This document shows, one piece after another, positions 848 through 38,284 of a DNA stretch of 64,000 nucleotides. The notes below the pieces were generated by a model, which had not been told where the DNA came from, made no database searches, and saw nothing but the letters and a program-made list of their open reading frames with translations. This DNA is from an uncultured Bacteroidales bacterium (lineage in GTDB: Bacteria; Bacteroidota; Bacteroidia; Bacteroidales; PWNQ01). Within the stretch, counting starts at the first letter, position 1. Each line of letters opens with the position of its first letter. The stretch is taken from assembly GCA_964477095.1 (NCBI GenBank), contig CAYZDA010000005.1, forward strand, positions 12,703 through 76,702, in the 5' to 3' direction. The position numbers were made by a program, and so were the translations under genes.

Positions 848-999
848 TTGCGTGTGTTTTTATTGGTGGATATTAATCTGTGGATTTGGTGCAATCTACA
901 ATCTTAATACGACTTAGAATGCTTTTTTCTTCCCTGCAAAAATACAGTATTTATATTGCCAGTGCGTTACTTTTTTATTGCTTATCAGTTCTCTCAATA

Positions 1000-2475: not shown

Positions 2476-2521
2476 TTTAATAATCTTCTGTAAATGCCCT
2501 GCAGGCTATGATGACCCTAAT

Positions 2522-3115
2522 TTAAGAATTACTTTTATACTCGCTTATTCTTTCAGACAAGAAAGCTTTCAGGCTTTTAGCCACCTCTTCCGGTAAGCCG
2601 GATATGAATAAGTCGCTGGAGCTTCCTCCTGCCGTGTATATTTTCACAGCAGATAGTTTAAATAGCCCGGGAAGAAATCCCTGAATTACTTCAACATGCT
2701 GAATCCGGTTAAACGGAACAGTGGTTAGTTTGTAAATAATCAGACCTCTTTGGAATGAAATATCCTTTTCACGGATCAGGTAACCCTTACGGGGAAATGC
2801 TAAAATGCTAAATGTTACTGATAAAACAACAAGGGCAGTGAGAATTGAAATGATAATAATACTCACAGTTTTAGGAATATTTTCACCTGAAATAAACAGA
2901 AAGGCAACATAAGCAGCAGTCATCACAAAATATACAATTGCTGACCGGATGTAAGTTATGTTTAATTGTTTTTTGTCAAGCGGATTGAATGTTGTCTTGT
3001 CAATTTCCGGCAGTTTTTGTGGAAGTACTATCGAATTGGAGAAATTTTCCATTAATTCACTGTTGATTTTATTGTTAGATACATTATGGATACAAAAATA
3101 TGATTTTTTATTCAT
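2522..3115 (-). CDS. YdbS-like membrane protein with one bPH_2 domain
   Basis: 197-aa ORF with two TM helices followed by a PH-like module (...FQRGLIIYKLTTVPFNRIQHVEV...). The true start may be the internal Met at 3052. Confidence 0.55.
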   Translation of the reverse strand: MNKKSYFCIHNVSNNKINSELMENFSNSIVLPQKLPEIDKTTFNPLDKKQLNITYIRSAIVYFVMTAAYVAFLFISGENIPKTVSIIIISILTALVVLSVTFSILAFPRKGYLIREKDISFQRGLIIYKLTTVPFNRIQHVEVIQGFLPGLFKLSAVKIYTAGGSSSDLFISGLPEEVAKSLKAFLSERISEYKSNS

Positions 3116-3150
3116 GTTGCCCGGTAAAGACTTCGCAAGCTGCCCACGGT

Positions 3151-4251: not shown

Positions 4252-4309
4252 GATTATTTATTGTTGGTTAAATCGTGTTTTATGTTTTGCCACTAATGTC
4301 GTAAGGAAA

Positions 4310-4789
4310 TTACTGTGCGTTTTCCTGCTTGCCGGTGGCCAATTGCAAATCCTTTTCAAGATAAATCATATCAATAAGTTGGATGTCGCCTTCAAACATG
4401 GGGTGGTCGTAATTGTCTGTAAAGAAATTTTTTACCCGCTGTGACAGTTTGAACCCACAACTTTCATAAAACGACAGTATTGCAGGTGTTTCCCCTGTGC
4501 CCACAAGCATTGTTTTGTAGTCGGTTTTGTAGAGATCAGAAATGAATTTTATCAAAGCTCTTCCATAACCCAGCCCCTGATATTTTTCAAAGGTCGCTAT
4601 GTTTTTTAACTCGCAGGTTTCATTGTTTACGGCTGCCACAACGCAAACACTTTTCAGATCACCGTCATATAAAGCAAATAAGTCTCCGTCCGGTAAATAT
4701 TTGTCGATCATATCTTCCTGCTCGTCAGCCAGCAACAATAAGTCGAGGAATCGCTTTTTATTTTCAGTAATCTTTTCAATTTTAACCAT
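4310..4789 (-). CDS. GNAT family N-acetyltransferase
   Basis: 159-aa ORF with the acetyl-CoA binding motif [11 protein letters not shown]. Confidence 0.7.
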
Positions 4790-5071
4790 TCTCTGTTTTT
4801 TTTAATGCATTGGAAAACGTGGTTTTCTGCCATATTACTTCATTATTGGCCCATAACTTGTCTTTTAAAAGGCAGGTTTACAGGTTACAGACCCGTAGGT
4901 GAAAAGACCCAATAAAAGACAGATGTGAAGAGCTATATTATTGAGGTATTTTGCTCTTCAAAATTAGGAAATAGATCATATTATACTAAAAAGAATGCTC
5001 TTAGTTGGACGATTATATTTAAGAAGATATGCAAGGGAGGATAGGCTACCGTAAGCAGCTGAAACTCCCGG

Positions 5072-6583
5072 CTATGAGAAGTCAGTCCAGGAGCTGTTAT
5101 CGTTGTAGTTTTCAACGGGAAGCGTTTGAGTGCTATGTTGATAAGCGCTTAGCAGTGTAGCAATTTCCAGTCTGATCATATCAATACTGCTGTTTGTTAA
5201 ATCCTGGCGGAAGCCTTTATGGGCCAGTGCGGCCACATAATCTGCTGCTACAATACGGCTGATTGTTTTTCCAAGTAATACTTGTTTGCGCTGGGGTATT
5301 TTCTCTTCCACATTAAAATTGATCAGGGATTTAAAATGAGTTGCAGTAAGCTGTGTTAATTCGTAATCTTTCAAATATTCAGCAAGATTTGTAAGTTTTT
5401 TGCGGCGCATTTGCTTCAGCAGCATTTCGGCAATCTGGGTGTAAAGCATTTCATTGGAACCTTCAAATACCATAAAAGGCCTGGAATCGATGATCCCGCG
5501 TGAGGCGATGCTTTCAACCTTATAGCCGTTGGCACCATAGAGCTGGGTTAGTATCTGTGCGGATTCCTGCATTAATTCAGTAACATAGGCTTTCATGGTG
5601 TTGGCTTCCACAGTTTTGCCGGATAGGTCGTGCTCTATGCCGCTGGCTTCAGTACTGCGTGAACACATGGCAGAGCTTACCGTAAAAGCAGTTTGTATGC
5701 GTGCCAGCTGCTGCTTTACCTGATCCAGGTCAATAAGGGGCCTGCCGCGTATGATTCGTTGTTGTGTATGCGCAACAGCATCATCCATCAACCTTCGGAT
5801 AAAGCCAACAGCCATACCGGGAAACTGAAAACGGCTACGGTGCAGCAGGTCCATGATCAGCTTCAGTCCTGTGCTTTCAGGTTGTAGCTTTTGCTCCTCA
5901 GGTACATGGATATCAATTCTGTTTTTGCCGTAAGGAATAGGATACAGCCCTATATTATTATACAGTTCTTCTACCTTGATGATTTGTTCAGGCTGCTGCG
6001 AGTCGGTAATGAAAAAATCAATATCACGGTTTAGCTCTCCTCCGGGCAGTTTTTCGCGGGAGGTCATCAGCCAGTAGTCGGCTATTCCGGTTAATCCCTG
6101 CCAGTGTTTTACACCTTTGATGTGATATTTGGATCCTTTTTTTTCATTGAATGTCTGCATGTTCAGCGCATCACTGCCATATCCTGGTTCGGTGATCATA
6201 AGCCCGCCCATATTCTGATGCTTCAGAAAGCGCCGGAAGACATCAGTCTTAATTGCTTCCCTGGCATATTTGTTTACCGGTCCCAGAAAAAGCCCGATAT
6301 TGATTCCAAACATTAAGGATAAGGGCAGTGATTCATAAGATGCTGCATCTAATATACCCAAAACTTCTTTTGTTTTAGCTCCACGGCCTCCATACTGTTT
6401 GGGGATAGCTACCGAAAATGGATTGGTAGCCATAATATCCCGCAATACGATAGCCGGAAAACCGCGTTGCTGGATAAATTCTTTTATATCATGCCTTTCG
6501 TGAAAGACGCTTTTTAAAGTTTGTTTGAAGTTTTGAATGAATTCTGTGAAAGAAGATATTTCTTCTGTTGCATTGTTTGTCAT
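5072..6583 (-). CDS. acyl-CoA dehydrogenase family protein
   Basis: 503-aa ORF. It carries ACAD-like blocks (MITEPGYGSDA, FEGSNEMLYTQIAE) and an extended C-terminus. Confidence 0.7.
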   Translation of the reverse strand: MTNNATEEISSFTEFIQNFKQTLKSVFHERHDIKEFIQQRGFPAIVLRDIMATNPFSVAIPKQYGGRGAKTKEVLGILDAASYESLPLSLMFGINIGLFLGPVNKYAREAIKTDVFRRFLKHQNMGGLMITEPGYGSDALNMQTFNEKKGSKYHIKGVKHWQGLTGIADYWLMTSREKLPGGELNRDIDFFITDSQQPEQIIKVEELYNNIGLYPIPYGKNRIDIHVPEEQKLQPESTGLKLIMDLLHRSRFQFPGMAVGFIRRLMDDAVAHTQQRIIRGRPLIDLDQVKQQLARIQTAFTVSSAMCSRSTEASGIEHDLSGKTVEANTMKAYVTELMQESAQILTQLYGANGYKVESIASRGIIDSRPFMVFEGSNEMLYTQIAEMLLKQMRRKKLTNLAEYLKDYELTQLTATHFKSLINFNVEEKIPQRKQVLLGKTISRIVAADYVAALAHKGFRQDLTNSSIDMIRLEIATLLSAYQHSTQTLPVENYNDNSSWTDFS

Positions 6584-7102
6584 TATATGATTTGATCCTT
6601 TTATTTGTCTGACATTACTTTATTGAAGAAAGTATTGAGCTAATCTTTATAACAATTTAAACAATATGATGTTTGATTAAGGCCTGAAATTCAATTCAGT
6701 TTTGTTTGTATTAAGCCTGAGACTAATCCGAAAAACATTTCGCATTATTTAGAAGGTTGAAGATAATTGCCGTCTCACTTTGATTGGATAGTTTCGAATT
6801 CAAACGGCTGAGAAACTGTAGAATACCTGAGCGTGCTGTCAGCTTTAAAAGCAGCATAATGTTCAGCTTTCAGCATAGTGTCGCCCGAAGTATTGTTGCG
6901 GAAATACTTTTTGGTTGCGTTCACCTTTTTACCGGAAACTCATAAGTTAATTCGGGTATTGAACGAACAAATGTGAAAGCTTAGAATGGGAAGATAAGCA
7001 AAACGTGATGTAATGGCTGAGCTGAGAATGGGGATATACAGCACAGGTGATAATTGGAACCTAACCGTACTAATGGTATCAGCCTGCAACGCCAGCGGTG
7101 AG

Positions 7103-7262
7103 TGCGGCAGGGCGGAGGCGGAAAGCCCGGCAGCAATTGAAGCGATGCTGCTGCCCCGGTGGCAGAGCGACAACAGGAGCTCCTGTCCACGGGTTGCAGC
7201 AGCACGCTGAAATGATGCCGGCTTGCAGCCGCAGACCGACCGCCGGCAGGCGGGCCGCCCTG
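7103..7262 (+). repeat. GC-rich structured repeat, copy A
   Basis: It shares ordered blocks with the reverse complement of 27232-27380: TGCGGCAGGGCG, GTGGCAGAGCG, GAGCTCCTGTCCAC, TGCAGC and a terminal GCCGCCC. It is intergenic and much more GC-rich than its flanks. Confidence 0.5.
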
Positions 7263-7365
7263 ATTAAATCATTTTTTCAGAAGGGAAGCTGCGCCGGACT
7301 GTTATCTAACTTTTCCCCGCTTAACTTGTTTGAAGATGTAAGCACACATTTAAAAAACTGAAACT

Positions 7366-7797
7366 ATGAGTAAACACAAATCATCAGCTGTATGGAAAGG
7401 CAATCTGCCAAAAGGAAGTGGAACCATGAACGTGGGAGAGGGTGCCTGGGAAGGTAAATTCTCTGCCAGGTCACGTTTTGAAGGCGGAGAGGGGAGTAGC
7501 CCGGAGGAACTGATCGCCGCGGCACATGCCGGCTGTTTTTCCATGGCTTTTTCTCATGCCCTGGCAGAATCAGGTTTTGAGCCTGAGCAGGTAAATACCA
7601 AAGCCGAAGCTACCATTGAAAAGGTGGAGGGTGGCTTTGCCATCACCAAAATCCATCTGACAACCAAAGGAAAGGTGAAAGATATTGAAGAGGACAAATT
7701 TATGGAGATCGCCAATGAGGCCAAGGAAAATTGCCCGGTGTCCAAAGCTCTCAAGCAGGGGGTGGAGATTTCCATGGATGCCAGTTTGGAAAACTGA
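7366..7797 (+). CDS. osmC: OsmC family peroxiredoxin
   Basis: 143-aa ORF. It has OsmC hallmarks: an N-terminal AVWKGNL...GSG block and the two conserved Cys contexts AHAGCFSMAF and NCPVSKAL. Confidence 0.85.
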   Translation: MSKHKSSAVWKGNLPKGSGTMNVGEGAWEGKFSARSRFEGGEGSSPEELIAAAHAGCFSMAFSHALAESGFEPEQVNTKAEATIEKVEGGFAITKIHLTTKGKVKDIEEDKFMEIANEAKENCPVSKALKQGVEISMDASLEN

Positions 7798-7848
7798 TAG
7801 TCCTCACAATAGTATTGTCTTCATCAGGGATTGTTCCCTGTGATATAA

Positions 7849-7885
7849 CCAGACGGGTTTCAATGCCTGTCTGGTTTTTGTTTTT
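7849..7885 (+). terminator. rho-independent terminator after osmC
   Basis: Hairpin CCAGACGGG-N8-CCTGTCTGG is followed by TTTTTGTTTTT. Confidence 0.6.
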
Positions 7886-7948
7886 GACAAACGGCGGGCA
7901 GGTAACGGTTGGCCCGCGGCTTATTTAAGTGCAGTGCTATTTCCTCCG

Positions 7949-8995
7949 TTAATCTTCCTTGTTTTTCTTCTGATCTTTATCCCGCTTTTCGGCTTTCTTT
8001 TTTGTGTATTCTTTGGCTTGCTTTTCGCTGTATTCGCCGGCTACATGATCAGCAAAGAATGCCCCACGCTTACCCATGGGCTTTTCGTCGCCCACAGTGG
8101 TATCCCTGCGGGTTTGATGCTCCAGTTCGGTATTGATTACTGCTCCGAGCATGATCACGAAAGATGTGAGGAAGAACCATAGCATCAATATGATGATGGC
8201 TGCAAAGCTGCCGTAGGTATTGTCAAAGTTGGTGAAGTTATTGATATAGATGGAAAATAATATGGATCCTCCCAGCCACAACAGGGTGGAGATAACGGCT
8301 CCCCAGCTCACCCAGGGAATGCGGGGGGATTTGCGTTGTGGAGCTATTTTGTAGGTAAAGCCCAGAAAAAGCATGATGCCCACAGCTATCAGCGGCCACC
8401 GCAGCCACACGACTATATCATGCAGGGTTTCTGACAAAGGCAACCAGTCAACCACAGCGGGAATACCGGCTACCAACACCAGTCCGATAATAATAGCTAT
8501 GATCCCGCCTATGGTAAACAGCAGGGTGACTCCGAATTTTTGAAAGATATTTCTTTTATTGGGTTCATTATACACGATGTTAATCCCTTCAAACAAGGCT
8601 ACTGTTCCGCGATTGGCTAAGAAAAGTGTTATAATTGATGAAAATATCAGGCTGAAACTCAGTGCTTCCTGCGATTTTCCTACAAGGTTTGTAAGGAAAT
8701 CGGATAATATCTTTTGCGCATCAGCAGGAAGAATATTGGTCAGCATGGAGATCTGTTCCTGTATTTGTGTCATATCAGTTACCAGACCGTAAATTGATAC
8801 CAGAGCAGCCATTATGGGGAACAGCGACATGAAAAAGAAGAAAGCCACACCTGCTGAAATCACCCGCACATGATTCTTACCCAAACTGTTCTTGATTCTT
8901 TTAGCAATTTGTTTCCAGCCTTTCAGGGGAATATATTTTGGCCTTGGAGCTTCTTTCCCCCGCTTATGATTATCATGCTTTTTGTTATTTGTCAT
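7949..8995 (-). CDS. YihY/BrkB family membrane protein
   Basis: 348-aa ORF. Multiple TM helices with a typical YihY N-terminal block (VISAGVAFFFFMSLFPIMAAL). Lys-rich C-terminal tail. Confidence 0.7.
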   Translation of the reverse strand: MTNNKKHDNHKRGKEAPRPKYIPLKGWKQIAKRIKNSLGKNHVRVISAGVAFFFFMSLFPIMAALVSIYGLVTDMTQIQEQISMLTNILPADAQKILSDFLTNLVGKSQEALSFSLIFSSIITLFLANRGTVALFEGINIVYNEPNKRNIFQKFGVTLLFTIGGIIAIIIGLVLVAGIPAVVDWLPLSETLHDIVVWLRWPLIAVGIMLFLGFTYKIAPQRKSPRIPWVSWGAVISTLLWLGGSILFSIYINNFTNFDNTYGSFAAIIILMLWFFLTSFVIMLGAVINTELEHQTRRDTTVGDEKPMGKRGAFFADHVAGEYSEKQAKEYTKKKAEKRDKDQKKNKED

Positions 8996-9248
8996 CGCAT
9001 TATGCTTTGATGTTTTATTACAATTCTGCCATTAGTTTGGTAAAACAGACACCGTTTTCATATATGATGTTACAGGCTTGTTTCTGCACCACCATCCGGA
9101 ATAAAGCTGTTAATCTTTTTAATGGCTTTTATCCGTGCCACGCCTTATTCCCCGCCCTTTACTGGTGGCGCCTGTTTCATGTTTGCTGCTGCTTCTTTTC
9201 TTCTTCAGAATAAAGTATTCTTAGGAATATATGTGGTGTTTTTGTTAT

Positions 9249-10349
9249 TTACTGCTGATAGATCCGGTAGATTTTTCCGGCATGATCATCGGACACCAGT
9301 AATGACCCGTCGCTCATGATCTCTACATCCACCGGGCGCCCCCAGGCTTCTTCTCCTTGCAGCCAGCCCGAAGCAAACACTTCTTTATCCCCTGCTGCAC
9401 CATTGTTAACAGGTACAAACATCACGCGGTAACCAATCTTACTGCTGCGATTCCAGGAACCGTGTTCGGCAAAGAAGATACCGTTGTGATATTTCTGCGG
9501 AAACATATCAGCAGTGTAAAATCTCATGCCCAGTGCAGCTACATGTGCCTCCAGCTTCACTTCAGGTTTCTTCCATTTAAAATCCTTTGGTCTTTTTTGC
9601 CAAAACTGTGGATCTGTAATGCTGTCGCCATGTACATACGGATAGCCGAAGTGCTGTCCGGTGGCAGTGAGCTTATTGATCTCATCCGGTGGCTTATGAT
9701 CGCCCATATGGTCTCGGCCGTTTTCAGTAAACCACAACACACCGGTTTGAGGATGCCAGTCGAATCCTACTGTATTTCTTACACCATGTGCGATAATCTC
9801 CATATTGCTGCCATCGGGATTAATCCTTGTGATGGAAGCAAAGATGCTGTCCTGGCTCAGGCAGATATTGCATGGCGCACCAACAGGAACATACAGTTTA
9901 TCATCGGGTCCGAATTTGATGAATTTCCAGCCGTGAGCAGCCTCATCGGGATACTGATCTGTTATCACTACGGGTTCAGGCGGATCATCCAGATGGTTCA
10001 GAATATCCGGGTATTTAAGTATTCTGGATACCGCTGACACATACAGATCACCCTGATAAATATCCACGCCGGCGGGTGAACTAATGTTTTCGTCCAACAC
10101 AATCACTTCCCGCTCACCGGCAGTAACGGCATATATTTTACCGGCCGACCTGGAGCCGACAAAGAGTGTTCCGTCATCGGCAAGCACCATAGCACGTGCA
10201 TTGGGAATGTCTTCCACGTAAACTTCGATATGGAAGCCGGATGGAAGTTCAATCAGATCAATATTCTGATTGCCGTTGTTATCATTATCCTGGCATGAAG
10301 TGAGCACAGGCATGATCATCAGCAAGCAGCCAATAAAGTTTATGTTCAT
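9249..10349 (-). CDS. PQQ-dependent sugar (glucose/sorbosone) dehydrogenase
   Basis: 366-aa ORF with a signal peptide. The beta-propeller sequence is typical of the sorbosone dehydrogenase family (HGWKFIKFGPDDKLYV, RNTVGFDWHP, WFTENGRD). Confidence 0.7.
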   Translation of the reverse strand: MNINFIGCLLMIMPVLTSCQDNDNNGNQNIDLIELPSGFHIEVYVEDIPNARAMVLADDGTLFVGSRSAGKIYAVTAGEREVIVLDENISSPAGVDIYQGDLYVSAVSRILKYPDILNHLDDPPEPVVITDQYPDEAAHGWKFIKFGPDDKLYVPVGAPCNICLSQDSIFASITRINPDGSNMEIIAHGVRNTVGFDWHPQTGVLWFTENGRDHMGDHKPPDEINKLTATGQHFGYPYVHGDSITDPQFWQKRPKDFKWKKPEVKLEAHVAALGMRFYTADMFPQKYHNGIFFAEHGSWNRSSKIGYRVMFVPVNNGAAGDKEVFASGWLQGEEAWGRPVDVEIMSDGSLLVSDDHAGKIYRIYQQ

Positions 10350-10408
10350 GACAGTAGTGTTTGATACAAGTGCTGATGCCGGGAATCATCCCGGCAACAG
10401 TGAGTATT

Positions 10409-10891
10409 TTACAATGTTTTGGTGGCTTCAATAGCAGCTTTGATGCGTTCATCAACTTTGTCGGGTTCGTGTTTTGTGAGCTCATTGAAGTCGCCTCTTA
10501 AAGCCTTTAGGGCATATTTTTCACGGTCGATTTCCTGCCTTGTTCTAAAGCCCATTCTTCTGAGGGCCATAGTGCAGGGCGACCAGCCCTTAACAGCACT
10601 CATACCTGAGGAAGCAGCGGCCAGTGTGGTTACAAACCACCATTTTTTTGATCCCAGCACACCAAGCAGGATACTGCCCAGCCCGATTCCGGAGTCGATG
10701 GCCTGTACCAGCTTCTGTACATCCCATTCCTTTTCCAGTGTGTTGATGCGGCCTGTGATAATGTCTTCCGCTTGCGTGGCATAATACCGAATGTTGTCTT
10801 CGATATAGCGGTCGATCCTTCGGTTGATCTCTTCGCCTGTGTTTTCCCTGATCATATCCATATAATCAGTGCCTTGATAGTTCTTGTTCAT
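10409..10891 (-). CDS. hypothetical membrane-associated protein
   Basis: 160-aa ORF with a central hydrophobic hairpin. There is a weak resemblance to DUF2892/YgaP-like proteins. Not confidently assigned. Confidence 0.3.
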   Translation of the reverse strand: MNKNYQGTDYMDMIRENTGEEINRRIDRYIEDNIRYYATQAEDIITGRINTLEKEWDVQKLVQAIDSGIGLGSILLGVLGSKKWWFVTTLAAASSGMSAVKGWSPCTMALRRMGFRTRQEIDREKYALKALRGDFNELTKHEPDKVDERIKAAIEATKTL

Positions 10892-10959
10892 AGTTAATCA
10901 AATTTTTAATTTGTTCTTAGTTTGTATGTCTTATTTCGTGCTCATTTTGGTATTGATCT

Positions 10960-11751
10960 TCAGTAACCGGGTTGTGTCTGGCAGGAAGGACATATAAAAC
11001 AACCCCTGCCGTTTACTCTGATCTTTTTAATACTACCGCCACATCGCGGACAGTCTCTGCCTTCCTCACGGTTTGGCAACAGATAGGATGCCGGTAGTTG
11101 TGAGGGTTGTGCATCCTTTTTAATTGCCATCTTCATAACCCTCTTCGTAGTATTGAACAAAGAATTAAAGCTTTTGTCAGTTAATTTTTCAATCTTTTGC
11201 TTCGGATGTATTTTTTCCTGAAACAATATTTCATCGGAATAAATATTGCCAATACCAGCCACAGCGCTCTGATCCATCAGGGCATTTTTAATGCCTCCTC
11301 GCTTGTTTTTAAAGGCCCGGCTGAATTCATCACGGCTACATTCCAATGCATCTTTTCCCAGATTATGAGTCTTACTGTATTCAGCCGGGCTGCCGGTTAT
11401 TTCCAGTGCTCCCAGCTTCCTTTTGGATATATAATTTAAGCGGTGGTTTCCAAAGTCCACACTCAATTTTGTGTATTTTGGTTTCGGTTTGTTTTTTTCA
11501 GAAGTTTCGAGGTATCCTGTCATCCCAAAGTGCATGGCCAGCCATTTATTATTGCTGATTTTCATCAATATATGCTTGCCGTTTCTCAGGGTTTGGGTAA
11601 ATACATTACCATTCAGGCTGCGGCTGATGAGCTGTTTTGAGGATTTAAGTACCTGTTGGGCATCCTCATAGTCCACAGATTCAATTTTTTTATTCAGTGC
11701 ATGTTTTTCAGCATGCTGCCGGAATATTTCCACGTCAGGTAGTTCAGGCAT
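10960..11751 (-). CDS. Fpg/Nei family DNA glycosylase / AP lyase
   Basis: 263-aa ORF. It has the catalytic N-terminus MPELPDVE and the C-terminal zinc finger CPRCGGSIKKIRVNGRGCFICPSCQ. Its start overlaps the upstream LigD-Pol stop by 8 nt (ATGCCTGA). Confidence 0.8.
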   Translation of the reverse strand: MPELPDVEIFRQHAEKHALNKKIESVDYEDAQQVLKSSKQLISRSLNGNVFTQTLRNGKHILMKISNNKWLAMHFGMTGYLETSEKNKPKPKYTKLSVDFGNHRLNYISKRKLGALEITGSPAEYSKTHNLGKDALECSRDEFSRAFKNKRGGIKNALMDQSAVAGIGNIYSDEILFQEKIHPKQKIEKLTDKSFNSLFNTTKRVMKMAIKKDAQPSQLPASYLLPNREEGRDCPRCGGSIKKIRVNGRGCFICPSCQTQPGY

Positions 11752-12673
11752 TTTCTTGTTTTTTTATGAGTTCATCCAGTTTTTTTCTTGCTTTATCCAG
11801 GTTGTTCTTTTTCTGATTAAAATCTTTCCAGGGATTTTCCTTGCGGGATATTCTCTGGAAGATATTGCTGTATTTATAGCTTTGCGCGTTGAGAGCGCTT
11901 TTGCCGGTTTCATTCCAGGAAAGAGGAGTAGCCACAGGTGCACCCTTAATGGGGCGCAACGCATAAGGTACCACGGAGGTTTGCCCGTAAGCATTTCTAA
12001 GATAGTCCAGAAACAATCTTCCTTTGCGTTTTTTCTTGAGTGTTTCCACCGTGTAATCATCAGGTTTTGTGTCAGCGAGCAGATTGGCTGCATCCCTGGC
12101 AAACTGCCGCGTTTGATCAAAGTCAGCTGTTTGATCCAGCGGAAGCACCACATGCATACCCCTGGATCCGGTAGTCATTACATAGCAGTGTAGTTCCAGC
12201 TCATCAAACAGCTTTTTGAAATCCTTTGCTGCCTGTTGCACCAGTTTGAATCCGTTTTCGGGAGGATCCAGGTCATAGATCATTTTGTCAGGATAATCCA
12301 GTTTGTTCTTTTTGCTCAGCCAGATATGCGGGGTGATGCAGGCCTGGTTGGCAATATAAATGAGAGCTGCTTCCGAGTCGCAATTAAGCATCTGCTGGCT
12401 GTCTTCGCCTGCTTTTTTTACTCTCACTTTGATTTCCTTCAGCCAGCCGGGGAAGTAATCAGCGGTTTGCTTCTGATAAAAATTATTGCCGTTAATGCCG
12501 TCAGGATAGCGATGAATCATCATGGGCCGGTCTGTCGTAAGGGGTATGATGTGTTCGGCCATTTGTGAATAATATTCCGCCAGCTCTTTTTTGCTGATGT
12601 TGTCATCCGGGAACATTTGTTTATCCGGATTGGAAATCTCAATGCTATGTCCGTTAGCCTTCATTTTTGTCAT
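11744..12673 (-). CDS. LigD polymerase/primase domain protein (stand-alone ORF)
   Basis: 309-aa ORF with AEP primase-polymerase motifs YDLDPPE and TGSRGMHVV. Confidence 0.8.
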   Translation of the reverse strand: MTKMKANGHSIEISNPDKQMFPDDNISKKELAEYYSQMAEHIIPLTTDRPMMIHRYPDGINGNNFYQKQTADYFPGWLKEIKVRVKKAGEDSQQMLNCDSEAALIYIANQACITPHIWLSKKNKLDYPDKMIYDLDPPENGFKLVQQAAKDFKKLFDELELHCYVMTTGSRGMHVVLPLDQTADFDQTRQFARDAANLLADTKPDDYTVETLKKKRKGRLFLDYLRNAYGQTSVVPYALRPIKGAPVATPLSWNETGKSALNAQSYKYSNIFQRISRKENPWKDFNQKKNNLDKARKKLDELIKKQENA

Positions 12674-31134: not shown

Positions 31135-31458
31135 TGTTTGATAGCAGATTGATTTTGGTACCACTGGGCTTTTGTGTGTTCCTGCAGAAGTTTTGGCATT
31201 TTTTATCTTAGAGTTTGTGCCTGAACTCACTTCCTCTGTGATCTCTGTGTCTTGGTGGGAACCGCCAATTTCGCGGATTTATAACGCCAATCAACGCGAA
31301 TTAATTAGTGCAGTTCGTGGTGGAAAATGCTGCCGCCTTGTGCGGTATGGGAAAATCTTATGGTGTTACATTCTTATTTATAAAAAATATAAATTGCTTA
31401 TTTGTTTTAATATGAGGGAAACATTTTCTAATTTTCGGCTGTCAAAAACCCAAGCTAT

Positions 31459-31992
31459 ATGAGAGTTGAACGAATGCCTGTAAAAAACGAAGAAGTAAAG
31501 GTTGCTGAGCCGGAAATCGATTTATCCCTTCTGGATGATTTGATCAGTAAATACAAGAACCGGCGTGGTAATCTGATTCCTTTACTTCAGGGGACCCAGG
31601 AACTTTATGGCTTCCTTCCCCGGAATGCTTTTCTGAAAATATCCCGCGAAACCGGTCTGGAGCTAAATGAAATGTATGGAGTGGCAACCTTTTATGCCCA
31701 GTTTCGCCTGCAGCCCGTAGGCAGGCATATCATCAAAGTGTGCCATGGTACGGCCTGTCATGTACAGAATGCCGGCGGCATTACCGATGCATTGGCAGAA
31801 GCACTTGGTGTACCCGATGGGGGTACTACCGAAGACCGGCTGTTTACCCTGGAATCTGTAGCCTGTCTTGGCTGCTGCTCGCTGGCTCCTGTAATGATGA
31901 TAGGAGAAGAAACCTATGGTAAACTTGACGGCAATAAAGCTGTCAGGGTGATCAAAGACATCAGGCTTAAGGAGCAAAAAAACGGAGGGTAA
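31459..31992 (+). CDS. NuoE/HydC-like thioredoxin-fold [2Fe-2S] subunit
   Basis: 177-aa ORF with the Cys motifs KVCHGTACHV and ACLGCCSLAPVMMI. Confidence 0.85.
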   Translation: MRVERMPVKNEEVKVAEPEIDLSLLDDLISKYKNRRGNLIPLLQGTQELYGFLPRNAFLKISRETGLELNEMYGVATFYAQFRLQPVGRHIIKVCHGTACHVQNAGGITDALAEALGVPDGGTTEDRLFTLESVACLGCCSLAPVMMIGEETYGKLDGNKAVRVIKDIRLKEQKNGG

Positions 31993-32025
31993 ACCATTTC
32001 ATTTTGTCAATCAAAACTCCCGATT

Positions 32026-33801
32026 ATGAAAAAGAAAGTTACAGTAGGCCTTGGCAGTTGCGGAATCGCGGCTGGTGCTGACAAGGTATATAAAAAGATA
32101 CAGGCCCTGAAAGAGGCGGAAAACCTTGATATTGATCTTCGAAAAACCTCCTGCGTTGGCATGTGCTACAATGAGCCGCTGGTGGAAGTGGAAGATGAAA
32201 CAGGGTATTATATGTACGGTGGTGTAGATGAGAAAAAGGCTGTACAGATCATGGAAGAGCACATTGCCCAATCAAATCCGGTTAAGGATTATGTGGTGCT
32301 TTCCGATCTTTTCGAGACCAAAGACGCGCAATATATGGAGGGGCAGGTGAAAATTGCCCTGCGAAATTGCGGATATATGGACCCGGAATCACTGCAGGAA
32401 GCAGAAGAACGTGGAGCCTATAAAGCCGTTAAAAAACTGTTGGATAATGATACCACAGCCGAAAAAGTAGTGGAGGAAATAATTAATTCAGGTCTGAGAG
32501 GCCGCGGTGGCGGCGGTTTCCCTGCCGGGCTCAAATGGAGGTTTGCTCTTCAGAATGTCTCGGATGAGAAATTCGTGATCTGCAATGCCGATGAAGGCGA
32601 TCCCGGAGCTTTTATGGACCGTTCACTGCTGGAAGGTGATCCTCACGCTGTACTGGAAGGTATGATCATAGCCGGATATGCCATTAAAGCTTCTCAGGGC
32701 GTGATCTATTGCCGCGCTGAATATCCGCTTGCCATAAAACGGCTGAATATTGCTATTGACCAGGCACGCGAAAAAGGCTACCTGGGAGAAAATATCTTCG
32801 GAAAAGAAGGTTTTAATTTTGATATTTTTGTGAAAGAAGGCGCCGGTGCCTTTGTTTGTGGTGAAGAAACCGCCCTGATGGCCTCCATTGAAGGCAAGCG
32901 CGGTATGCCTCGAAAGCGTCCGCCTTTTCCCGCCGCTTCAGGATTGTGGAAAAAACCTTCCAATATCAACAATGTGGAAACCTTTGCCAATGTACCCTGG
33001 ATCATACTGAACGGCGCTGAAAAATTTGCTTCATACGGAACTGAAAAGAGCAAGGGAACAAAGGTTTTTGCACTCACCGGTAAGATCAATAACGGCGGCC
33101 TTGTGGAAGTGCCCATGGGCATTACAATTAAGGATATTATATTTAAACTTGGCGGTGGAATTCAGAAGAATAAGGAATTTAAAGCTGTCCAGCTCGGTGG
33201 CCCCTCCGGAGGCTGCATCCCTGCTTATCTGGCAGATACAAAAGTTGATTACGATTCTGTAAATGCCACGGGTGCCATAATGGGCTCTGGAGGTATGGTG
33301 GTAATGGATGAAACCACCTGTATGGTGGACATGGCCCGGTTCTTCCTGGATTTTACCCAGGTGGAATCCTGCGGAAAATGTACCTTCTGCCGTGTGGGTA
33401 CTAAACGAATGCTTGAAATCCTTACACGTATCACAGAAGGTGAAGGAGAGGAAGGTGACATTGAAAAGCTGGAAGAACTGGCATACCAGATTAAGGATAA
33501 TTCCCTGTGCGGACTGGGGCAAACGGCTCCCAATCCTGTACTCACAACCATAAAATATTTCCGTGACGAATACGAAGCTCACATCAATCAGAAAAAATGT
33601 CCTGCTCAAAGTTGTAAAAAGCTGCTTACCTATGAAATAGATCCGGACAATTGTACGGGTTGCAGGGTTTGCGCTATTAAATGTCCTGTGGATGCCATAA
33701 CAGGCGAGAAAAAACAGGTGCATGTCATTGATCAGGACATCTGTATCCGCTGTGGCGACTGCTACAACCGGTGCAAATTTGATGCTGTTGCAGTACATTA
33801 A
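32026..33801 (+). CDS. NuoF/HydB-like NAD(H)-binding FMN flavoprotein with extra Fe-S domains
   Basis: 591-aa ORF. It carries an N-terminal thioredoxin-like 2Fe-2S domain (GLGSCGIAAG...SCVGMCYNEP), the FMN/NADH block GLRGRGGGGFPAGLKWRF, cluster N3 (ESCGKCTFCRVG) and two C-terminal 4Fe-4S motifs (CTGCRVCAIKCP, CIRCGDCYNRC). Confidence 0.85.
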   Translation: MKKKVTVGLGSCGIAAGADKVYKKIQALKEAENLDIDLRKTSCVGMCYNEPLVEVEDETGYYMYGGVDEKKAVQIMEEHIAQSNPVKDYVVLSDLFETKDAQYMEGQVKIALRNCGYMDPESLQEAEERGAYKAVKKLLDNDTTAEKVVEEIINSGLRGRGGGGFPAGLKWRFALQNVSDEKFVICNADEGDPGAFMDRSLLEGDPHAVLEGMIIAGYAIKASQGVIYCRAEYPLAIKRLNIAIDQAREKGYLGENIFGKEGFNFDIFVKEGAGAFVCGEETALMASIEGKRGMPRKRPPFPAASGLWKKPSNINNVETFANVPWIILNGAEKFASYGTEKSKGTKVFALTGKINNGGLVEVPMGITIKDIIFKLGGGIQKNKEFKAVQLGGPSGGCIPAYLADTKVDYDSVNATGAIMGSGGMVVMDETTCMVDMARFFLDFTQVESCGKCTFCRVGTKRMLEILTRITEGEGEEGDIEKLEELAYQIKDNSLCGLGQTAPNPVLTTIKYFRDEYEAHINQKKCPAQSCKKLLTYEIDPDNCTGCRVCAIKCPVDAITGEKKQVHVIDQDICIRCGDCYNRCKFDAVAVH

Positions 33802-33831
33802 TTAAATTTATGAACTGAAAAATCAAGAACA

Positions 33832-36800
33832 ATGAGCGATACTTTGAACGTCATATTAAACGGAAAACGCGAAACGGGCTACCAGGGAGAAACCATACTG
33901 GAACTGGCCCGCCGCAAAGGAATAGAAATACCTACCTTGTGTTACGATCCGCGCCTGGAACCTTATTCCTCCTGCTATGTTTGCGTGGTGGAAGTGGAAG
34001 GCATGAAGGGCATGCAACCCAGTTGCTCCACCCGGATCAATGAAGGCATGAGGATCAATACAGATAATGAACAAGTGCATAGTGCACGAAAAGCAGCATT
34101 GGACTTGCTTGTTTCCAATCATTATGCTGATTGTATGGCACCTTGCACCCAGGAATGTCCTGCCGGAGTAGATGTGCAGGGCTATATTTCACTGGTGGAA
34201 AAAGGCCTTTATCATGATGCAGTGGCATTAATCAAGGAAACAAATCCGTTGCCTGCTGTTTGCGGACGCGTTTGTGTTCGCCCGTGTGAAGCGGTCTGCC
34301 GCCGGAATCTGCTCAATGAAGGAGCTCCCGTGGGCATAGATTATCTGAAAAGATATGCCGCTGATAAAGACCTGCTGGAATCCCACAACCACTACAAGCC
34401 CGTTAAGCAGCCATTTAATGGTAAGCGGGTGGCAATAATAGGAGCCGGACCTGGCGGGCTGTCAGCTGCCTATTTCCTGCAACCAAAAGGATACCAATGC
34501 GATATATACGAAGCCAATGACCATCCCGGCGGATGGCTGCGCTATGGAATACCCGAATACCGCCTGCCCAATGATGTGCTCGACAAGGAAGTCAGCACCA
34601 TCACCGAACTTGGTGCCAAAATTTTCTACAGAAAGAAACTGGGTGGTAACCTGAAGTATTCCGAACTGAAAGAAAATTATGATGCTCTGATCCTGACTAT
34701 TGGTTCGCAGCGCGGAACGCTGCTGGGCTGCGAAGGGGAAGATGCCGAAGGTGTTTATTCCGGTATCGATTTCCTGCGGAATATGGAGCAGACAGGCCAG
34801 AAGTATGATTTTAGTGGTAAGAAAGTAGCTGTTGTCGGTGGCGGGAATACTGCCATGGACTGTTGCCGTACGGCCAAACGCTGCAAGTCGGATGAGGTGT
34901 ATCTAATATATCGCCGTGCCGAAGAGCAGATGCCGGCTAACCCGATCGAAATCCATGAATCAAAACAGGAAGGCATCAGCTATATGCTGTTGACAAACCC
35001 GGTGAAGGTAAATAAGGATGAAAACGGAAAGGTAAAATCCATGACCCTTATCCGGATGGAACTGGGCGAACCGGATGCTTCAGGCCGCCGTCGGCCAATA
35101 CCTGTTGAAGGATCACAATTTGAACTGGAAGTGGACTACGTGCTGGCCGCAATCGGTCAGAAAACACAGGCCGATTTTATTGATGACATTAATGAGCATG
35201 CTGAAAAAGGCGAACTTAAACTAAACCGCTGGGGTGATTTAGATGCTGATCCGAAAACTCTGCAAACAGGCATACCTCATATTTTTGCAGCCGGTGACGG
35301 AGTTACTGGTCCGGCTACTGTGATTGAAGCGATTAACCAGGCCAAAATCGCCTCCCGAAGTGTGGAGCAATTCCTTAACGGAGAGGAGTTTTCTATGCCT
35401 GTGAAGGAATTTGTGAGCAGAAAAGATAATTTTAAGCCACAGGTGGCTGATGATTATGCCGGGAGATACCGGCAGCAGGTGCGTTATGAAATGCCTGTGC
35501 TGGATGCTGACAAGCGTGCTAATTTTGATGAAGTAGAACTGGGATACCAAAGTGTAGAAGAGGTAGAGCAGGAAACCTCACGCTGTCTGGAATGCGGATG
35601 TGTGGCCTTTTTTGATTGTGATCTGCAAAAATACAGTACAACATACCGGGCCGAGCAGGATAAATACAAAGGCGGGTTTAAAGAATATCAGGTGAAGTTT
35701 GATCATCCGTTTGTTGAGATTGATAATAACAAATGCGTGCTTTGCTCACGTTGCATCAGAATATGCAGCGAAGTTGTGGGTGCCAATGCACTGGGATTGA
35801 TAAACCGTGGTTTTGACACTTATGTGGCTCCGGCCATGGGCGACAGCCTCATCGATACCAATTGCGAAAGCTGCGGTATGTGTATATCTGCATGCCCTAC
35901 AGGAGCCATCACTGAGAATGTGCCTTTTAAACCCGGGCCCGTGAAAACCGAACCCATTGACCTTATTTGTAACTATTGCTCAGTGGGCTGTGAGATTACT
36001 CATCACCATAAATCGGGATTTGTAATGAAGACCACCGGCAAGGAGGAAGGACTGGTGAATAAGTATGGAAGCATCTGTCGCTTTCCCAAATTTGGCTATC
36101 ACTATCTGAATGACCGGTCAAGGATCACCAAACCTTTATTGAAAAAAGACGGTGAATTTGTGGAAATTTCTTTTGATGAAGCCTACAGCTTAATTACTGG
36201 AAAAATAAAAGATGCCGGTAGAAATGAGAATGCCTTCTTTGCCGGGGCAAGGCTGAGCAATGAAGAAATGTTTATGATCCAGAAGCTGGCACGTGCCGGT
36301 GTTAAAACCAACAATGTTGACAGTTTCCACTATCTGGGAAGGGGAAAAGGATACCACTTTGATACCTGGATGAATGTACCTTTCCAGGAGATCAGAGAAG
36401 CTGGTAAGATCTGGCTGCTGGGTGCCGAGCTTCACCATGATCATGCTGTTGCCGGCTTCATGGTCAATAAGGCCCGTAACGCCGGAACTCCTGTGAAGCT
36501 TATCACCAAACAGCAGAAAAGTGATATGGAACGCAAGGTGGATGAGCTACTGAAAGTGAAGTATTACTACCATTTTATCAGAGCCGCCAACTATTTCATA
36601 GTGGAAAATAACCTGGTGAATGAGATGTTTGTGAATGACCGCACCGTGGATTTCCACAAATACAAAGAGGAATTGATGAAGGAAGACTTTAATGAACTTC
36701 TGGAGAATTCCGGTGTAAGCCGTGAACAATTGCAGGCATTTGTTGCGGAATTCAATAAGGAACTTCAGGCTGTGATGATCACTGAAGAAAAGCACCTTCC

Positions 36801-37539
36801 GGCTAATGCCATGGCAGAGGTTCGCAACCTGATGCTGCTTACCGGCAAACTGGGCAAAACAGCCATGGGGCTGATCAGTCTGAGAGAGAAAAACAACAGC
36901 CAGGGATTACTTGATATGGGCATAGGGCAGGAGTTTGGTGTTGGCACATTGCCAGTGGGAGAGAATCAGGTGCTGAATGATAAAATGGCTTCGCTCTGGA
37001 AAGTGGATGACCTGCCGGGTGATATTGGTGAGCCGCTTGATAAACAACTGGAAGAGGGTAATATCAAAAACCTGTTTGTTTTTGGCGAAGACCCGCTGGG
37101 CTGTGCCATTGATAAAGATGAAGTGAAAGCCTGGCTGGATAATACCGGTTTCCTCATGGTTCAGGATTATTTCCTTACAGAAACTGCTGAAATGGCTGAC
37201 CTGGTCATGCCAGCGTCTCTGCCACACGAAACCGGTGGCAGCTTTACAAATGCCGGGAAAAAAATCCAGACATTTGAAAAATACGATCTTTTGACACCCG
37301 GAGTTGAACATGATAATATCAGGCAACTGGTTGAGCTTCATAAAGCCTTCGGATTAAACAGTATCGAAGAAGTACATGATGCTTTTATGGAAGCTGTCAG
37401 CCTGTTGCCAACATCAGAGGATGGCAGGAATATCCCCTTCCTGGTCAATGGGAAGGAGGATACTCTGAAAATGTTTAACTTCGGCTGTGACTACCTGATG
37501 AAGCGCTTTGAAGAAGAGTTTAACGAAAAGCTTAGTTAA
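33832..37539 (+). CDS. fusion protein: 2Fe-2S ferredoxin domain + GltD-like NAD(P)H/FAD module + NuoG-type 4Fe-4S clusters + degenerate molybdopterin-oxidoreductase domain
   Basis: 1235-aa ORF. Motifs in order: CYDPRLEPYSSCYVCVVEV...SCST; CGRVCVRPCEAVCRR; VAIIGAGPGGLSAAYF; VAVVGGGNTAMDCCRTA; CVLCSRCIRIC; CESCGMCISACPTGAI; ICNYCSVGCEI...GSICRF. A MopB-like region follows that reads TNNVDSFHYLGRG where formate dehydrogenases carry Cys/Sec-His. Confidence 0.75.
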   Translation: MSDTLNVILNGKRETGYQGETILELARRKGIEIPTLCYDPRLEPYSSCYVCVVEVEGMKGMQPSCSTRINEGMRINTDNEQVHSARKAALDLLVSNHYADCMAPCTQECPAGVDVQGYISLVEKGLYHDAVALIKETNPLPAVCGRVCVRPCEAVCRRNLLNEGAPVGIDYLKRYAADKDLLESHNHYKPVKQPFNGKRVAIIGAGPGGLSAAYFLQPKGYQCDIYEANDHPGGWLRYGIPEYRLPNDVLDKEVSTITELGAKIFYRKKLGGNLKYSELKENYDALILTIGSQRGTLLGCEGEDAEGVYSGIDFLRNMEQTGQKYDFSGKKVAVVGGGNTAMDCCRTAKRCKSDEVYLIYRRAEEQMPANPIEIHESKQEGISYMLLTNPVKVNKDENGKVKSMTLIRMELGEPDASGRRRPIPVEGSQFELEVDYVLAAIGQKTQADFIDDINEHAEKGELKLNRWGDLDADPKTLQTGIPHIFAAGDGVTGPATVIEAINQAKIASRSVEQFLNGEEFSMPVKEFVSRKDNFKPQVADDYAGRYRQQVRYEMPVLDADKRANFDEVELGYQSVEEVEQETSRCLECGCVAFFDCDLQKYSTTYRAEQDKYKGGFKEYQVKFDHPFVEIDNNKCVLCSRCIRICSEVVGANALGLINRGFDTYVAPAMGDSLIDTNCESCGMCISACPTGAITENVPFKPGPVKTEPIDLICNYCSVGCEITHHHKSGFVMKTTGKEEGLVNKYGSICRFPKFGYHYLNDRSRITKPLLKKDGEFVEISFDEAYSLITGKIKDAGRNENAFFAGARLSNEEMFMIQKLARAGVKTNNVDSFHYLGRGKGYHFDTWMNVPFQEIREAGKIWLLGAELHHDHAVAGFMVNKARNAGTPVKLITKQQKSDMERKVDELLKVKYYYHFIRAANYFIVENNLVNEMFVNDRTVDFHKYKEELMKEDFNELLENSGVSREQLQAFVAEFNKELQAVMITEEKHLPANAMAEVRNLMLLTGKLGKTAMGLISLREKNNSQGLLDMGIGQEFGVGTLPVGENQVLNDKMASLWKVDDLPGDIGEPLDKQLEEGNIKNLFVFGEDPLGCAIDKDEVKAWLDNTGFLMVQDYFLTETAEMADLVMPASLPHETGGSFTNAGKKIQTFEKYDLLTPGVEHDNIRQLVELHKAFGLNSIEEVHDAFMEAVSLLPTSEDGRNIPFLVNGKEDTLKMFNFGCDYLMKRFEEEFNEKLS

Positions 37540-37559
37540 TAATCTCAAACCATTATACT

Positions 37560-38015
37560 ATGAAAGAATTCAGAACTATAGACGACATTCTTCAGTTCGC
37601 GATGAATGAAGAACAAAAAGCGGTGGACTTTTACACCATCCTGGCAGAGAACTCTAAAAATGAAGACATGAAAAAGGTCTTTGAAAGCTTTGCACAGGAG
37701 GAGATAGGACATAAAGCCCGGCTTGCACGTATCCGCAAAGAAGGGTTATATGTGGTGGCGGAAAATAATATTACGGATCTGAAGATCGCCGATTACCAGA
37801 CGGATGTGGAGCCGCATGCTGATATGGATTATGAGCAGGCACTGATTGTAGCCATGAAGAAGGAGAAATCCGCCTTCCGCCTGTATTCCGATCTGGCTGA
37901 CAGGGCGCCCAACCAGGAGATGAAGGAGCTTTTCCAAAGCCTTGCCCTGGAGGAGTCTAAACATAAACTGCGCTTTGAACTGGAATATGATGAATATGTA
38001 TTGAGGGAAAATTAA
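37560..38015 (+). CDS. rubrerythrin/ferritin-like diiron protein (no rubredoxin domain)
   Basis: 151-aa ORF with two ExxH motifs (QEEIGHKARL, LEESKHKLRF), each preceded by a helix carrying a Glu. Confidence 0.65.
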   Translation: MKEFRTIDDILQFAMNEEQKAVDFYTILAENSKNEDMKKVFESFAQEEIGHKARLARIRKEGLYVVAENNITDLKIADYQTDVEPHADMDYEQALIVAMKKEKSAFRLYSDLADRAPNQEMKELFQSLALEESKHKLRFELEYDEYVLREN

Positions 38016-38038
38016 GCCCCCTTACTGACCCAAAAGCT

Positions 38039-38062
38039 AAAGGCCCGCGAGGGCCTTTTTTT
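38039..38062 (+). terminator. rho-independent terminator closing the 31459-38015 operon
   Basis: Hairpin AAAGGCCC-GCGA-GGGCCTTT runs into a T7 tract. Confidence 0.7.
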
Positions 38063-38284
38063 GTGAGGAAAGTCAAAAAGCCATAGTGAAATGATGGTTG
38101 GCTTCCTTTTTCTATCACCTTTAGTGATAAGTCCCTGCTATACACCATAATTTTGCTGATTTATTTTAATCATGTAGCCTGTGTTGCTGATGAAAGCAAT
38201 CCGCTTATCGGCAGTATTTATACTATGCTGTGTAAATAACTGTATTAAATCAAGAAAGAAATAGCAAAGTATGTAAAACAAACT

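Follow-up and report, generated by a model that had tools for sequence, protein, structure and literature searches.

A predicted Stn/Nfn-type transhydrogenase operon with a conserved diiron protein gene in an uncultured Bacteroidales bacterium

We analyzed a 64,000-nucleotide stretch of DNA (hereafter, the window) from an uncultured Bacteroidales bacterium (GenBank assembly GCA_964477095.1, contig CAYZDA010000005.1, positions 12,703 to 76,702). The window contains an operon of four genes (Table 1). Judging from sequence comparison with solved enzymes, genes 1–3 almost certainly encode orthologues of StnABC/NfnABC, which belong to the Bfu family (type 1, "Nfn-Bfu"). Gene 4 encodes a small rubrerythrin-like diiron protein. 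The explanation that we favor for the locus as a whole is a Stn/NfnABC transhydrogenase with a conserved diiron accessory protein, and we regard it as very likely.

The transhydrogenase subunits and their genomic setting

The 177-amino acid protein matches the Pfam family 2Fe-2S_thioredx (PF01257) with an E-value of 2.8e-46. The 591-amino acid protein consists of Complex1_51K, SLBB, and NADH_4Fe-4S domains and two C-terminal Fer4 domains, with a weak N-terminal match to 2Fe-2S_thioredx (residues 17–78). The 1235-amino acid protein starts with Fer2_4 (residues 4–79), Fer4_20 (residues 101–180), and Pyr_redox_2 (residues 199–504), and its C-terminal half comprises Fer4_Nqo3 (residues 626–694), Molybdop_Fe4S4 (residues 712–760), and Molybdopterin (residues 764–1150). 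A preliminary description of this DNA had proposed extra domains in the NuoE- and NuoF-like subunits (N-terminal thioredoxin-like, two C-terminal 4Fe-4S) and a GltD-type NAD(P)H/FAD module in the third subunit. The Pfam map confirms both, the latter as Fer4_20 plus Pyr_redox_2.

Stn/Nfn enzymes have been solved by electron cryomicroscopy, namely StnABC from Sporomusa ovata (8OH5/8OH9), NfnABC from Caldicellulosiruptor saccharolyticus (Csac; 9BOV/9BP5), and NfnABC from Thermococcus sibiricus (9N5U; PMC12018979). For all three subunits of the window, the best solved relatives over the full length are 8OH5, 9BOV, and 9N5U, with E-values of about 1e-48 to 1e-259. The NuoE-like subunit matches 9bov_C (8.9e-54), 9n5u_C (1.5e-49), and 8oh5_A (8.6e-48), with HydC and NuoE behind. 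The NuoF-like subunit (residues 3–590) reaches 865 bits with 8oh5_B, 845 bits with 9bov_B, and 828 bits with 9n5u_B, followed by HydB (746–600 bits), FdsB (∼400 bits), and NuoF/Nqo1 of complex I (∼380–330 bits). Its residue-by-residue alignment with 8oh5_B and 9bov_B spans residues 4–590, and its identity to StnB/NfnB is 63–64%. The large subunit aligns with 9bov_A (E-value 4.4e-229) and 8oh5_C (E-value 2.3e-222) over residues 5–1185 and is 41% identical to Csac NfnA over residues 18–892. The gene order is identical to that of SOV_1c07740-60 in S. ovata.

As a reciprocal control, we used the HydB paralogue that the same genome encodes beside a true HydA. This paralogue scores higher with HydB (858 bits) than with StnB (747 bits), whereas the NuoF-like subunit of the window shows the reversed preference (865 bits with StnB, 728 bits with HydB). 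In a maximum likelihood tree of 24 NuoF-like sequences (quick search; clade 53 of Schut et al. itself was not rebuilt), the window protein, its relatives from Bacteroidota and Ignavibacteriota, and three characterized Stn/Nfn subunits form one clade with a support of 100 in the Shimodaira–Hasegawa-like approximate likelihood ratio test. HydB sequences and the four NuoF-like paralogues of the genome lie outside this clade. The NuoF-like subunit is placed apart from HydB and complex I. Both the structural matches and the tree are in agreement with the Stn/Nfn-type assignment within the Bfu family that had been suggested for the operon. The accompanying statement that it could not be matched to a characterized enzyme does not hold, because StnABC/NfnABC enzymes have been purified, assayed, and solved (PMC7483475, PMC9304861, PMC11829005).

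The full four-gene operon also occurs on a contig (JBKHIH010000004.1, locus L004) of a gammaproteobacterial metagenome-assembled genome labeled Thiohalospira sp. This locus is nested in the Bacteroidota clade next to locus L005, indicating that the contig is probably misbinned.

The large subunit possesses a [2Fe-2S] cysteine motif (C37/48/51/65), the cysteines of two GltD-type clusters (C101/105/109 and C148/152/156, with C144), and four further motifs (C585/588/590/596, C635/638/641/645, C678/681/684/688, and C713/716/720/749). In 70 relatives, the motif cysteines are 100% conserved, apart from the last set, which is conserved to ∼90%. Before residue 900, 27 of the 32 cysteines face a cysteine in Csac NfnA, and the only exception within a motif is C144. 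The clusters predicted from these motifs (one [2Fe-2S] and six [4Fe-4S]) equal the count published for StnC. In the NuoF-like subunit, all 23 cysteines are invariant in 67 relatives.

The Molybdopterin and Molybdop_Fe4S4 domains of the large subunit, together with subthreshold NCBIfam matches to Fdh-alpha and NuoG, might indicate a catalytic Mo/W formate dehydrogenase, or a NuoEF pair that belongs to respiratory complex I. Both alternatives can be considered refuted. A genuine FdhA of 907 amino acids, with the CH active-site pair and an RGQNNVQG motif, is encoded on contig C15 of the same genome. When aligned with this FdhA, the large subunit shows a 13-residue gap exactly over the Cys-His segment, YCTRLCHASTVTA, where its relatives read SFHY.G. 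The local blastp alignment ends at residue 733 of 907 in FdhA and at residue 1193 of 1235 in the query, and no Molydop_binding cap (PF01568) is found in the large subunit by Pfam at E ≤ 0.01. The gene contains no in-frame TGA or other stop codon able to encode selenocysteine. At the position of the active-site arginine, the window protein has R1018, and 65 of the 70 relatives have a lysine. The alignment with a catalytic formate dehydrogenase is thus gapped at the active site and does not include the catalytic Cys/Sec. For complex I, the Nqo1/NuoF subunits reach less than half of the StnB score (381–333 versus 865 bits), and no membrane nuo genes are adjacent. An HydABC-type [FeFe] hydrogenase was rejected as well, because Pfam detects no hydrogenase domain in the large subunit, whereas the true HydA paralogues of the genome carry the H-cluster motifs. 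The absence of an H-cluster and of a catalytic molybdenum site, as described earlier, is borne out by the missing hydrogenase domain, the deleted Cys-His segment, and the missing cap.

By these residues, the FdhF-like C-terminal domain is a noncatalytic scaffold, as it is in the solved enzymes. According to the structural papers, the Fdh-like domain of those enzymes has no catalytic activity; its pterin site is incomplete, and it contains two clusters that form a dead end. StnC-like paralogues also occur as orphans (loci L020, L021, L023, L024, L029, and L031; e.g. L024, positions 5001–8585). They are 53–57% identical to the large subunit of the window and lack the C713/716/720/749 motif, with no NuoE- or NuoF-like genes in the upstream sequence of up to 5 kb and no diiron gene directly downstream. 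A rule by which loss of the C713–C749 cluster equals absence of gene 4 was dropped, because locus L049 is without the cluster yet keeps the gene.

By analogy to its homologues, the enzyme would reversibly couple 2 NADPH + NAD+ + 2 Fd(ox) ↔ 2 NADP+ + NADH + 2 Fd(red), where Fd is ferredoxin. The following electron path is taken over from the solved homologues. NADPH would reduce the FAD in the GltD-like module of the large subunit, from where electrons would pass through the [4Fe-4S] chain of this subunit to the [4Fe-4S]-FMN-[2Fe-2S] "flavobicluster" of the NuoF- and NuoE-like subunits. Bifurcation would take place at the flavobicluster, with the high-potential electrons reducing NAD+ at the FMN and the low-potential electrons passing to ferredoxin via the two [4Fe-4S] clusters at the C terminus. 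The [2Fe-2S] cluster of the NuoE-like subunit would serve as the gating cluster of the bifurcation site.

The genome (3.04 Mb, 97.7% complete) encodes a NifJ-type pyruvate:ferredoxin oxidoreductase, three NuoEF-linked [FeFe] hydrogenase-type clusters, and one NuoEF-linked FdhA. No Rnf was detected above the cutoff in this genome, nor was a classical NfnSL/GltD, and the operon holds the only GltD/NfnL-like module. In terms of recognizable genes, only this complex connects the ferredoxin/NADH pools with that of NADPH. The presence of pyruvate:ferredoxin oxidoreductase and several [FeFe] hydrogenases, with no Rnf or NfnSL found, suggests that the enzyme most likely runs in the reverse direction, from NADH and reduced ferredoxin to NADPH for biosynthesis. 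The operon would thus represent the probable NADPH source of this fermentative host, in which no other ferredoxin-linked transhydrogenase was found.

The other NuoEF-linked clusters of the genome are an HydABC-type [FeFe] hydrogenase (C19:30403-34941), a third HydA with short NuoEF (C38:11027-14546), and a Cys-type FdhA with NuoEF (C15:51335-55779). The second HydA-like protein (C19:40958-48737) is encoded beside a hydrogenase-like/histidine-kinase fusion and a response-regulator histidine kinase and is of the sensory type.

The diiron protein and its association with transhydrogenases

The 151-amino acid product of gene 4 matches Pfam Rubrerythrin (PF02915, E-value 4.2e-16). Its diiron ligands E18, E48, H51, E102, E132, and H135 (E, ExxH, E, ExxH) are invariant in 189 homologues, as are E47, E131, and several tyrosines, which confirms the earlier view of gene 4 as a diiron rubrerythrin-like protein. 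The protein contains no cysteine and hence no C-terminal rubredoxin Fe(Cys)4 domain; the NCBIfam rubrerythrin equivalog NF045767 gives only 19.5 bits, with a cutoff of 200. AlphaFold (AF2) predicts a four-helix bundle with a predicted local distance difference test score of 84.6. The best fold match of this model is TM1526 (1VJX), an uncharacterized diiron protein, with a template modeling score of 0.80, and rubrerythrin, Dps-like, and bacterioferritin folds rank lower. A sequence search of solved proteins returned only PF1190 (2FZF) and TM1526, with E-values of 4e-8 to 1e-3 and 21–25% identity, and there are partial EncFtn matches. By its predicted ligands and its lack of cysteine, the gene 4 product is a rubredoxin-less "erythrin"-type diiron protein. 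It belongs to a family of stand-alone proteins of ∼150 amino acids with 1873 representatives at E ≤ 1e-3. The genome contains a second, unrelated ferritin-like diiron open reading frame of ∼167 amino acids (C9:38197-38646, minus strand), which is 31% identical to gene 4.

The genomic neighborhood links gene 4 to StnC. Our linkage counts cover the FCB group; a 30-sequence alignment search returned only close Bacteroidota relatives. In a search with the large subunit, gene 4 was found in the locus of 25 of 27 Stn operons with downstream sequence, mostly within 100 nucleotides. In a search with the small protein, gene 4 directly follows a StnC-like gene in 100 of 129 informative loci, at a distance of 10–130 nucleotides in most of them. 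In 5 more of these loci, gene 4 directly follows a classical NfnS-NfnL pair, and in three of three cases examined, this pair is itself located downstream of a StnC-like paralogue. We also drew 201 genomes evenly from the order, noting that related genomes are not independent. Both genes are present in 60 of these genomes, gene 4 only in 7 (two of which hold distant relatives), StnC only in 18, and neither gene in 116. Thus, 60 of 67 carriers of gene 4 also have StnC, and the two genes are adjacent in 33 of the 60. Among 300 genomes sampled evenly across the phylum, no copy of gene 4 was found except in the window genome, indicating that the StnC/gene 4 pair is restricted to certain anaerobic lineages and to Ignavibacteria.

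Unlinked copies of gene 4 often follow gdhA (loci L059, L103, and L071; gdhA at ∼5300–6870) or a gene for an H+-translocating pyrophosphatase (L047 and L050). Such copies lie upstream of a BatA-type aerotolerance gene in L047, L050, and L057. In L071, a receiver-PPDK_N protein is encoded upstream of gdhA.

Some Bacteroidales possess extended Stn operons (Table 1), in which stnA-stnB-stnC are followed by a gene for a 294-amino acid double-zinc-ribbon protein, with or without nfnS-nfnL, by a gene for a fusion protein of 754–757 amino acids, and by the gene for the 151-amino acid protein. Where nfnS-nfnL are included, two unrelated transhydrogenases are encoded in one gene string. The fusion protein comprises an N-terminal ferritin-like domain, two [4Fe-4S] modules, Molybdop_Fe4S4, and an Fdh-like domain. 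As read from its domains, it is in effect a StnC in which the [2Fe-2S]/GltD part is swapped for a diiron domain. It is represented by three clusters at 90% identity that come from different samples, which argues against an assembly artifact. An NfnL-ferritin fusion of 650 amino acids was found once, with a ferritin part that is 50% identical to gene 4. Two distant members of the gene 4 family, P0169 (210 amino acids) and P0173 (184 amino acids), carry an N-terminal desulforedoxin-like CxxC...CC(G) domain.

Taken together, gene 4 is probably tied functionally to the transhydrogenase. Several observations weigh against this tie. No counterpart of gene 4 exists in the stn locus of S. ovata. Of the 60 genomes with both genes, 25 have StnC and gene 4 on different contigs, and several of these contigs are long, so that the separation is real there. 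The StnC-like gene occurs without gene 4 in 18 genomes of the order sample, and unlinked copies of gene 4 adjoin gdhA, the H+-translocating pyrophosphatase gene, or batA. The singleton NfnL-ferritin fusion could be due to loss of a stop codon or to erroneous sequencing. The closest structures, TM1526 and PF1190, are structural-genomics proteins without assigned function. Finally, we weighed the NCBIfam entry NF009413 ("NfnA-NfnB-ferritin") as a possible Rosetta stone; its ferritin domain matches the open reading frame on contig C9 better than gene 4, and its support therefore holds at the superfamily level only.

The absence of gene 4 from the S. ovata locus, the sizeable minority of unlinked copies, with their aerotolerance neighbor batA among others, and the breadth of the family would fit a general oxidative-stress or iron-handling protein that shares only a promoter with Stn and receives its electrons from another donor. 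We consider this rather unlikely, as 60 of 67 carriers also have StnC, the intergenic gaps in most loci are short (10–130 nucleotides), gene 4 also follows the unrelated NfnSL, and the fused family joins the diiron domain to the Fe-S/Fdh-like module of StnC. Because the Stn enzyme of S. ovata works without gene 4, the gene 4 product is an accessory protein that is not needed for transhydrogenase activity.

The catalytic-type ligands, the two unrelated transhydrogenase partners, and the fusions to Fe-S and Fe(Cys)4 modules point to a diiron center that exchanges electrons with an Fe-S chain. Gene 4 may accordingly be a direct redox partner of the complex or a peroxidase, a proposal to which we give slightly less than an even chance. 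The protein would reduce H2O2 or O2 with electrons taken from the complex's Fe-S chain, and this reduction would protect or relieve the flavin- and Fe-S-rich, oxygen-sensitive bifurcating enzyme. A more far-reaching and unlikely version is that gene 4 encodes a true fourth subunit, or dedicated acceptor, of Stn/Nfn in Bacteroidales and Ignavibacteria. It would dock on the large subunit and be fed by the "dead-end" [4Fe-4S] branch of the pseudo-Fdh domain, letting the bifurcating enzyme reduce H2O2 or O2 with NADPH (or with NADH and ferredoxin). If this were true, it would provide a function for clusters and a domain that the structural papers call nonfunctional, and it would describe a self-protecting bifurcating enzyme.

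Gene 4 could also act as an iron donor or Fe-S repair factor (RIC/YtfE- or mini-ferritin-like) for the ∼11 Fe-S clusters per protomer. The ferritin-like, Dps-like, and bacterioferritin fold matches, the partial EncFtn matches, and the association with two different Fe-S-rich transhydrogenases are compatible with such a role. We nevertheless regard it as improbable, because the E/ExxH/E/ExxH set with additional invariant glutamates and tyrosines is of the rubrerythrin/erythrin catalytic type, and the desulforedoxin-like and [4Fe-4S] fusions point to electron transfer rather than storage. Still less probable is a four-protein complex that functions mainly as an NAD(P)H/ferredoxin:H2O2 (or O2) oxidoreductase of the "Rub-Bfu" kind and not as a transhydrogenase. 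A Rub-Bfu type has been predicted, and the ferritin-FeS-FdhF-like fusions demonstrate that a diiron domain can be wired to an Fe-S chain. However, BfuA is missing from the predicted Rub-Bfu, in which BfuB is followed by a full rubrerythrin, whereas BfuA is present here with a complete NADPH module, the subunits are 41–64% identical to proven transhydrogenases, and the genome has no other ferredoxin-linked route to NADPH.

Operon boundaries and upstream region

Table 1. Features of the operon in the window and extended Stn operons at other loci (coordinates of the latter refer to their own loci)
Feature	Coordinates	Strand	Description
Intergenic spacer, comEC to operon	31135..31458	+	324 nt
stnA / nfnC (gene 1)	31459..31992	+	177 aa; NuoE-like thioredoxin-fold [2Fe-2S] subunit
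stnB / nfnB (gene 2)	32026..33801	+	591 aa; NuoF-like FMN/NAD(H) subunit; N-terminal thioredoxin-like site, C-terminal 2x[4Fe-4S] domain for ferredoxin binding
stnC / nfnA (gene 3)	33832..37539	+	1235 aa; large GltD/NuoG/FdhF-like subunit
Gene 4	37560..38015	+	151 aa; rubredoxin-less rubrerythrin-like ("erythrin") diiron four-helix bundle
Intrinsic terminator	38039..38066	+	hairpin and T run
Extended Stn operon, L186 (G392:C451)	952-12385	minus
Extended Stn operon, L189	1-11739
Extended Stn operon, L190	1999-11612

The four open reading frames are all on the plus strand and are separated by gaps of 33, 30, and 20 nucleotides. Downstream, the hairpin at positions 38039–38058, AAAGGCCCGCGAGGGCCTTT, forms an 8-bp stem with five G-C pairs and is followed by TTTTGTG. 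The four codirectional genes closed by a strong terminator, as annotated in the preliminary description, are thus reproduced by the coordinates of the open reading frames and by a G+C-rich hairpin with a T run. The operon is preceded by a ComEC-type gene that ends at position 31134. Its 3′ neighbors are an unannotated open reading frame and a gene for a LexA-like (XRE/LexA-like) repressor on the other strand.

The 324-nucleotide region ahead of gene 1 had been described as a leader. Its length as a spacer is correct, but a transcribed or regulatory leader is not supported, because there is no Rfam match and only the last ∼85 nucleotides are conserved. At gathering scores, Rfam gave no match in the whole window, and none was obtained at E ≤ 1 in the spacer. 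A riboswitch or structured leader was rejected on the same two grounds. When the spacer was aligned with those of four relatives (proteins 73–87% identical), conservation was restricted to two blocks at ∼31375–31458, TATTTA..TATAAATT and then AAACATTTTCTAATTTTCGGC..CAAAAA.CCAAGCT before the ATG. The second block is A-rich, 40 nucleotides long, and continuous into the ATG, which supports a true start at position 31459. Neither the sequence that separates the two blocks nor that preceding them is conserved in the four relatives, and the distal spacer is wholly different because the upstream genes differ. The conserved blocks contain no exact match to a TAnnTTTG box, and in a sigma-70 scan, sites were no more numerous than in shuffled sequence. 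In the simplest reading of this conservation, the two blocks probably correspond to a promoter and to a short 5′ untranslated region rich in A, at most ∼90 nucleotides from the start codon. A 96-amino acid open reading frame within the spacer (positions 31172–31462) has no Pfam match and was treated as spurious.

Comparison with known systems

Stn was purified from S. ovata as an electron-bifurcating, ferredoxin-dependent NADH:NADP+ transhydrogenase (PMC7483475), and the route of the electrons and the [4Fe-4S]-FMN-[2Fe-2S] bifurcation site are known from the structures of StnABC and Csac NfnABC (PMC10482914, PMC11829005). StnABC of S. ovata has also been expressed in E. coli. Defining features of StnABC/NfnABC include ferredoxin- and NAD+-dependent oxidation of NADPH and assembly as a tetramer of heterotrimers. 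The window operon shares with StnABC of S. ovata the gene order, all domains, and the predicted cofactors of the large subunit (one [2Fe-2S], six [4Fe-4S], and FAD). The NuoF-like subunits are 64% identical, and the FdhF-like domain is inactive in both. Whereas S. ovata is an acetogen, the operon of the window belongs to a fermentative, uncultured member of Bacteroidales, and no Wood-Ljungdahl genes are adjacent to it. Of the two operons, only that of the window carries the conserved diiron fourth gene; the S. ovata locus is flanked by metVF and pabAB.

In the PDB, the Csac and T. sibiricus NfnABC enzymes rank first or close to first as matches of each of the three subunits. As in Csac NfnABC, the pterin site of the window protein is incomplete, but the large subunits are only 41% identical, and that of T. 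sibiricus is ∼270 residues shorter. The N-terminal site of the NuoF-like subunit holds a [2Fe-2S] cluster in S. ovata and zinc in Csac, and the sequence of the window protein is compatible with either. The location of the operon in Bacteroidota, which had been presented as unusual, is not new, since Nfn-type BfuB is stated to occur in Bacteroidetes (PMC9304861).

"Rub-Bfu" (type 4 Bfu) is a predicted complex, itself uncharacterized, which has been proposed to be linked to the detoxification of peroxide (PMC9304861). Like the window operon, it combines genes for a Bfu BC core with that for a diiron protein of the rubrerythrin family. Rub-Bfu possesses no BfuA, and its rubrerythrin gene directly follows BfuB, whereas a full Nfn-type BfuA lies in between in the window, where the diiron protein has no rubredoxin domain. 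Like gene 4, TM1526, PF1190, and ferriperoxin are rubredoxin-less, rubrerythrin-like diiron four-helix bundles, the last being compared by description only. Ferriperoxin from Hydrogenobacter thermophilus is an NADPH/FNR-dependent peroxidase that receives electrons from an NADPH flavoenzyme (PMC3317640), and a hydrogenase-rubrerythrin chimera reduces H2O2 with H2 (PMC11926857).

With respect to its core, the enzyme is ordinary, being another Bacteroidales example of a family with published mechanism and structures. The conserved diiron partner is a useful lead. It is associated with both Stn/NfnABC and NfnSL, two NADPH/ferredoxin transhydrogenases that are unrelated to each other. Should it indeed act as a redox partner, flavin-based electron bifurcation would be coupled directly to the defense against peroxide or oxygen in gut and sediment anaerobes, and the "dead-end" clusters of the solved enzymes might be explained.

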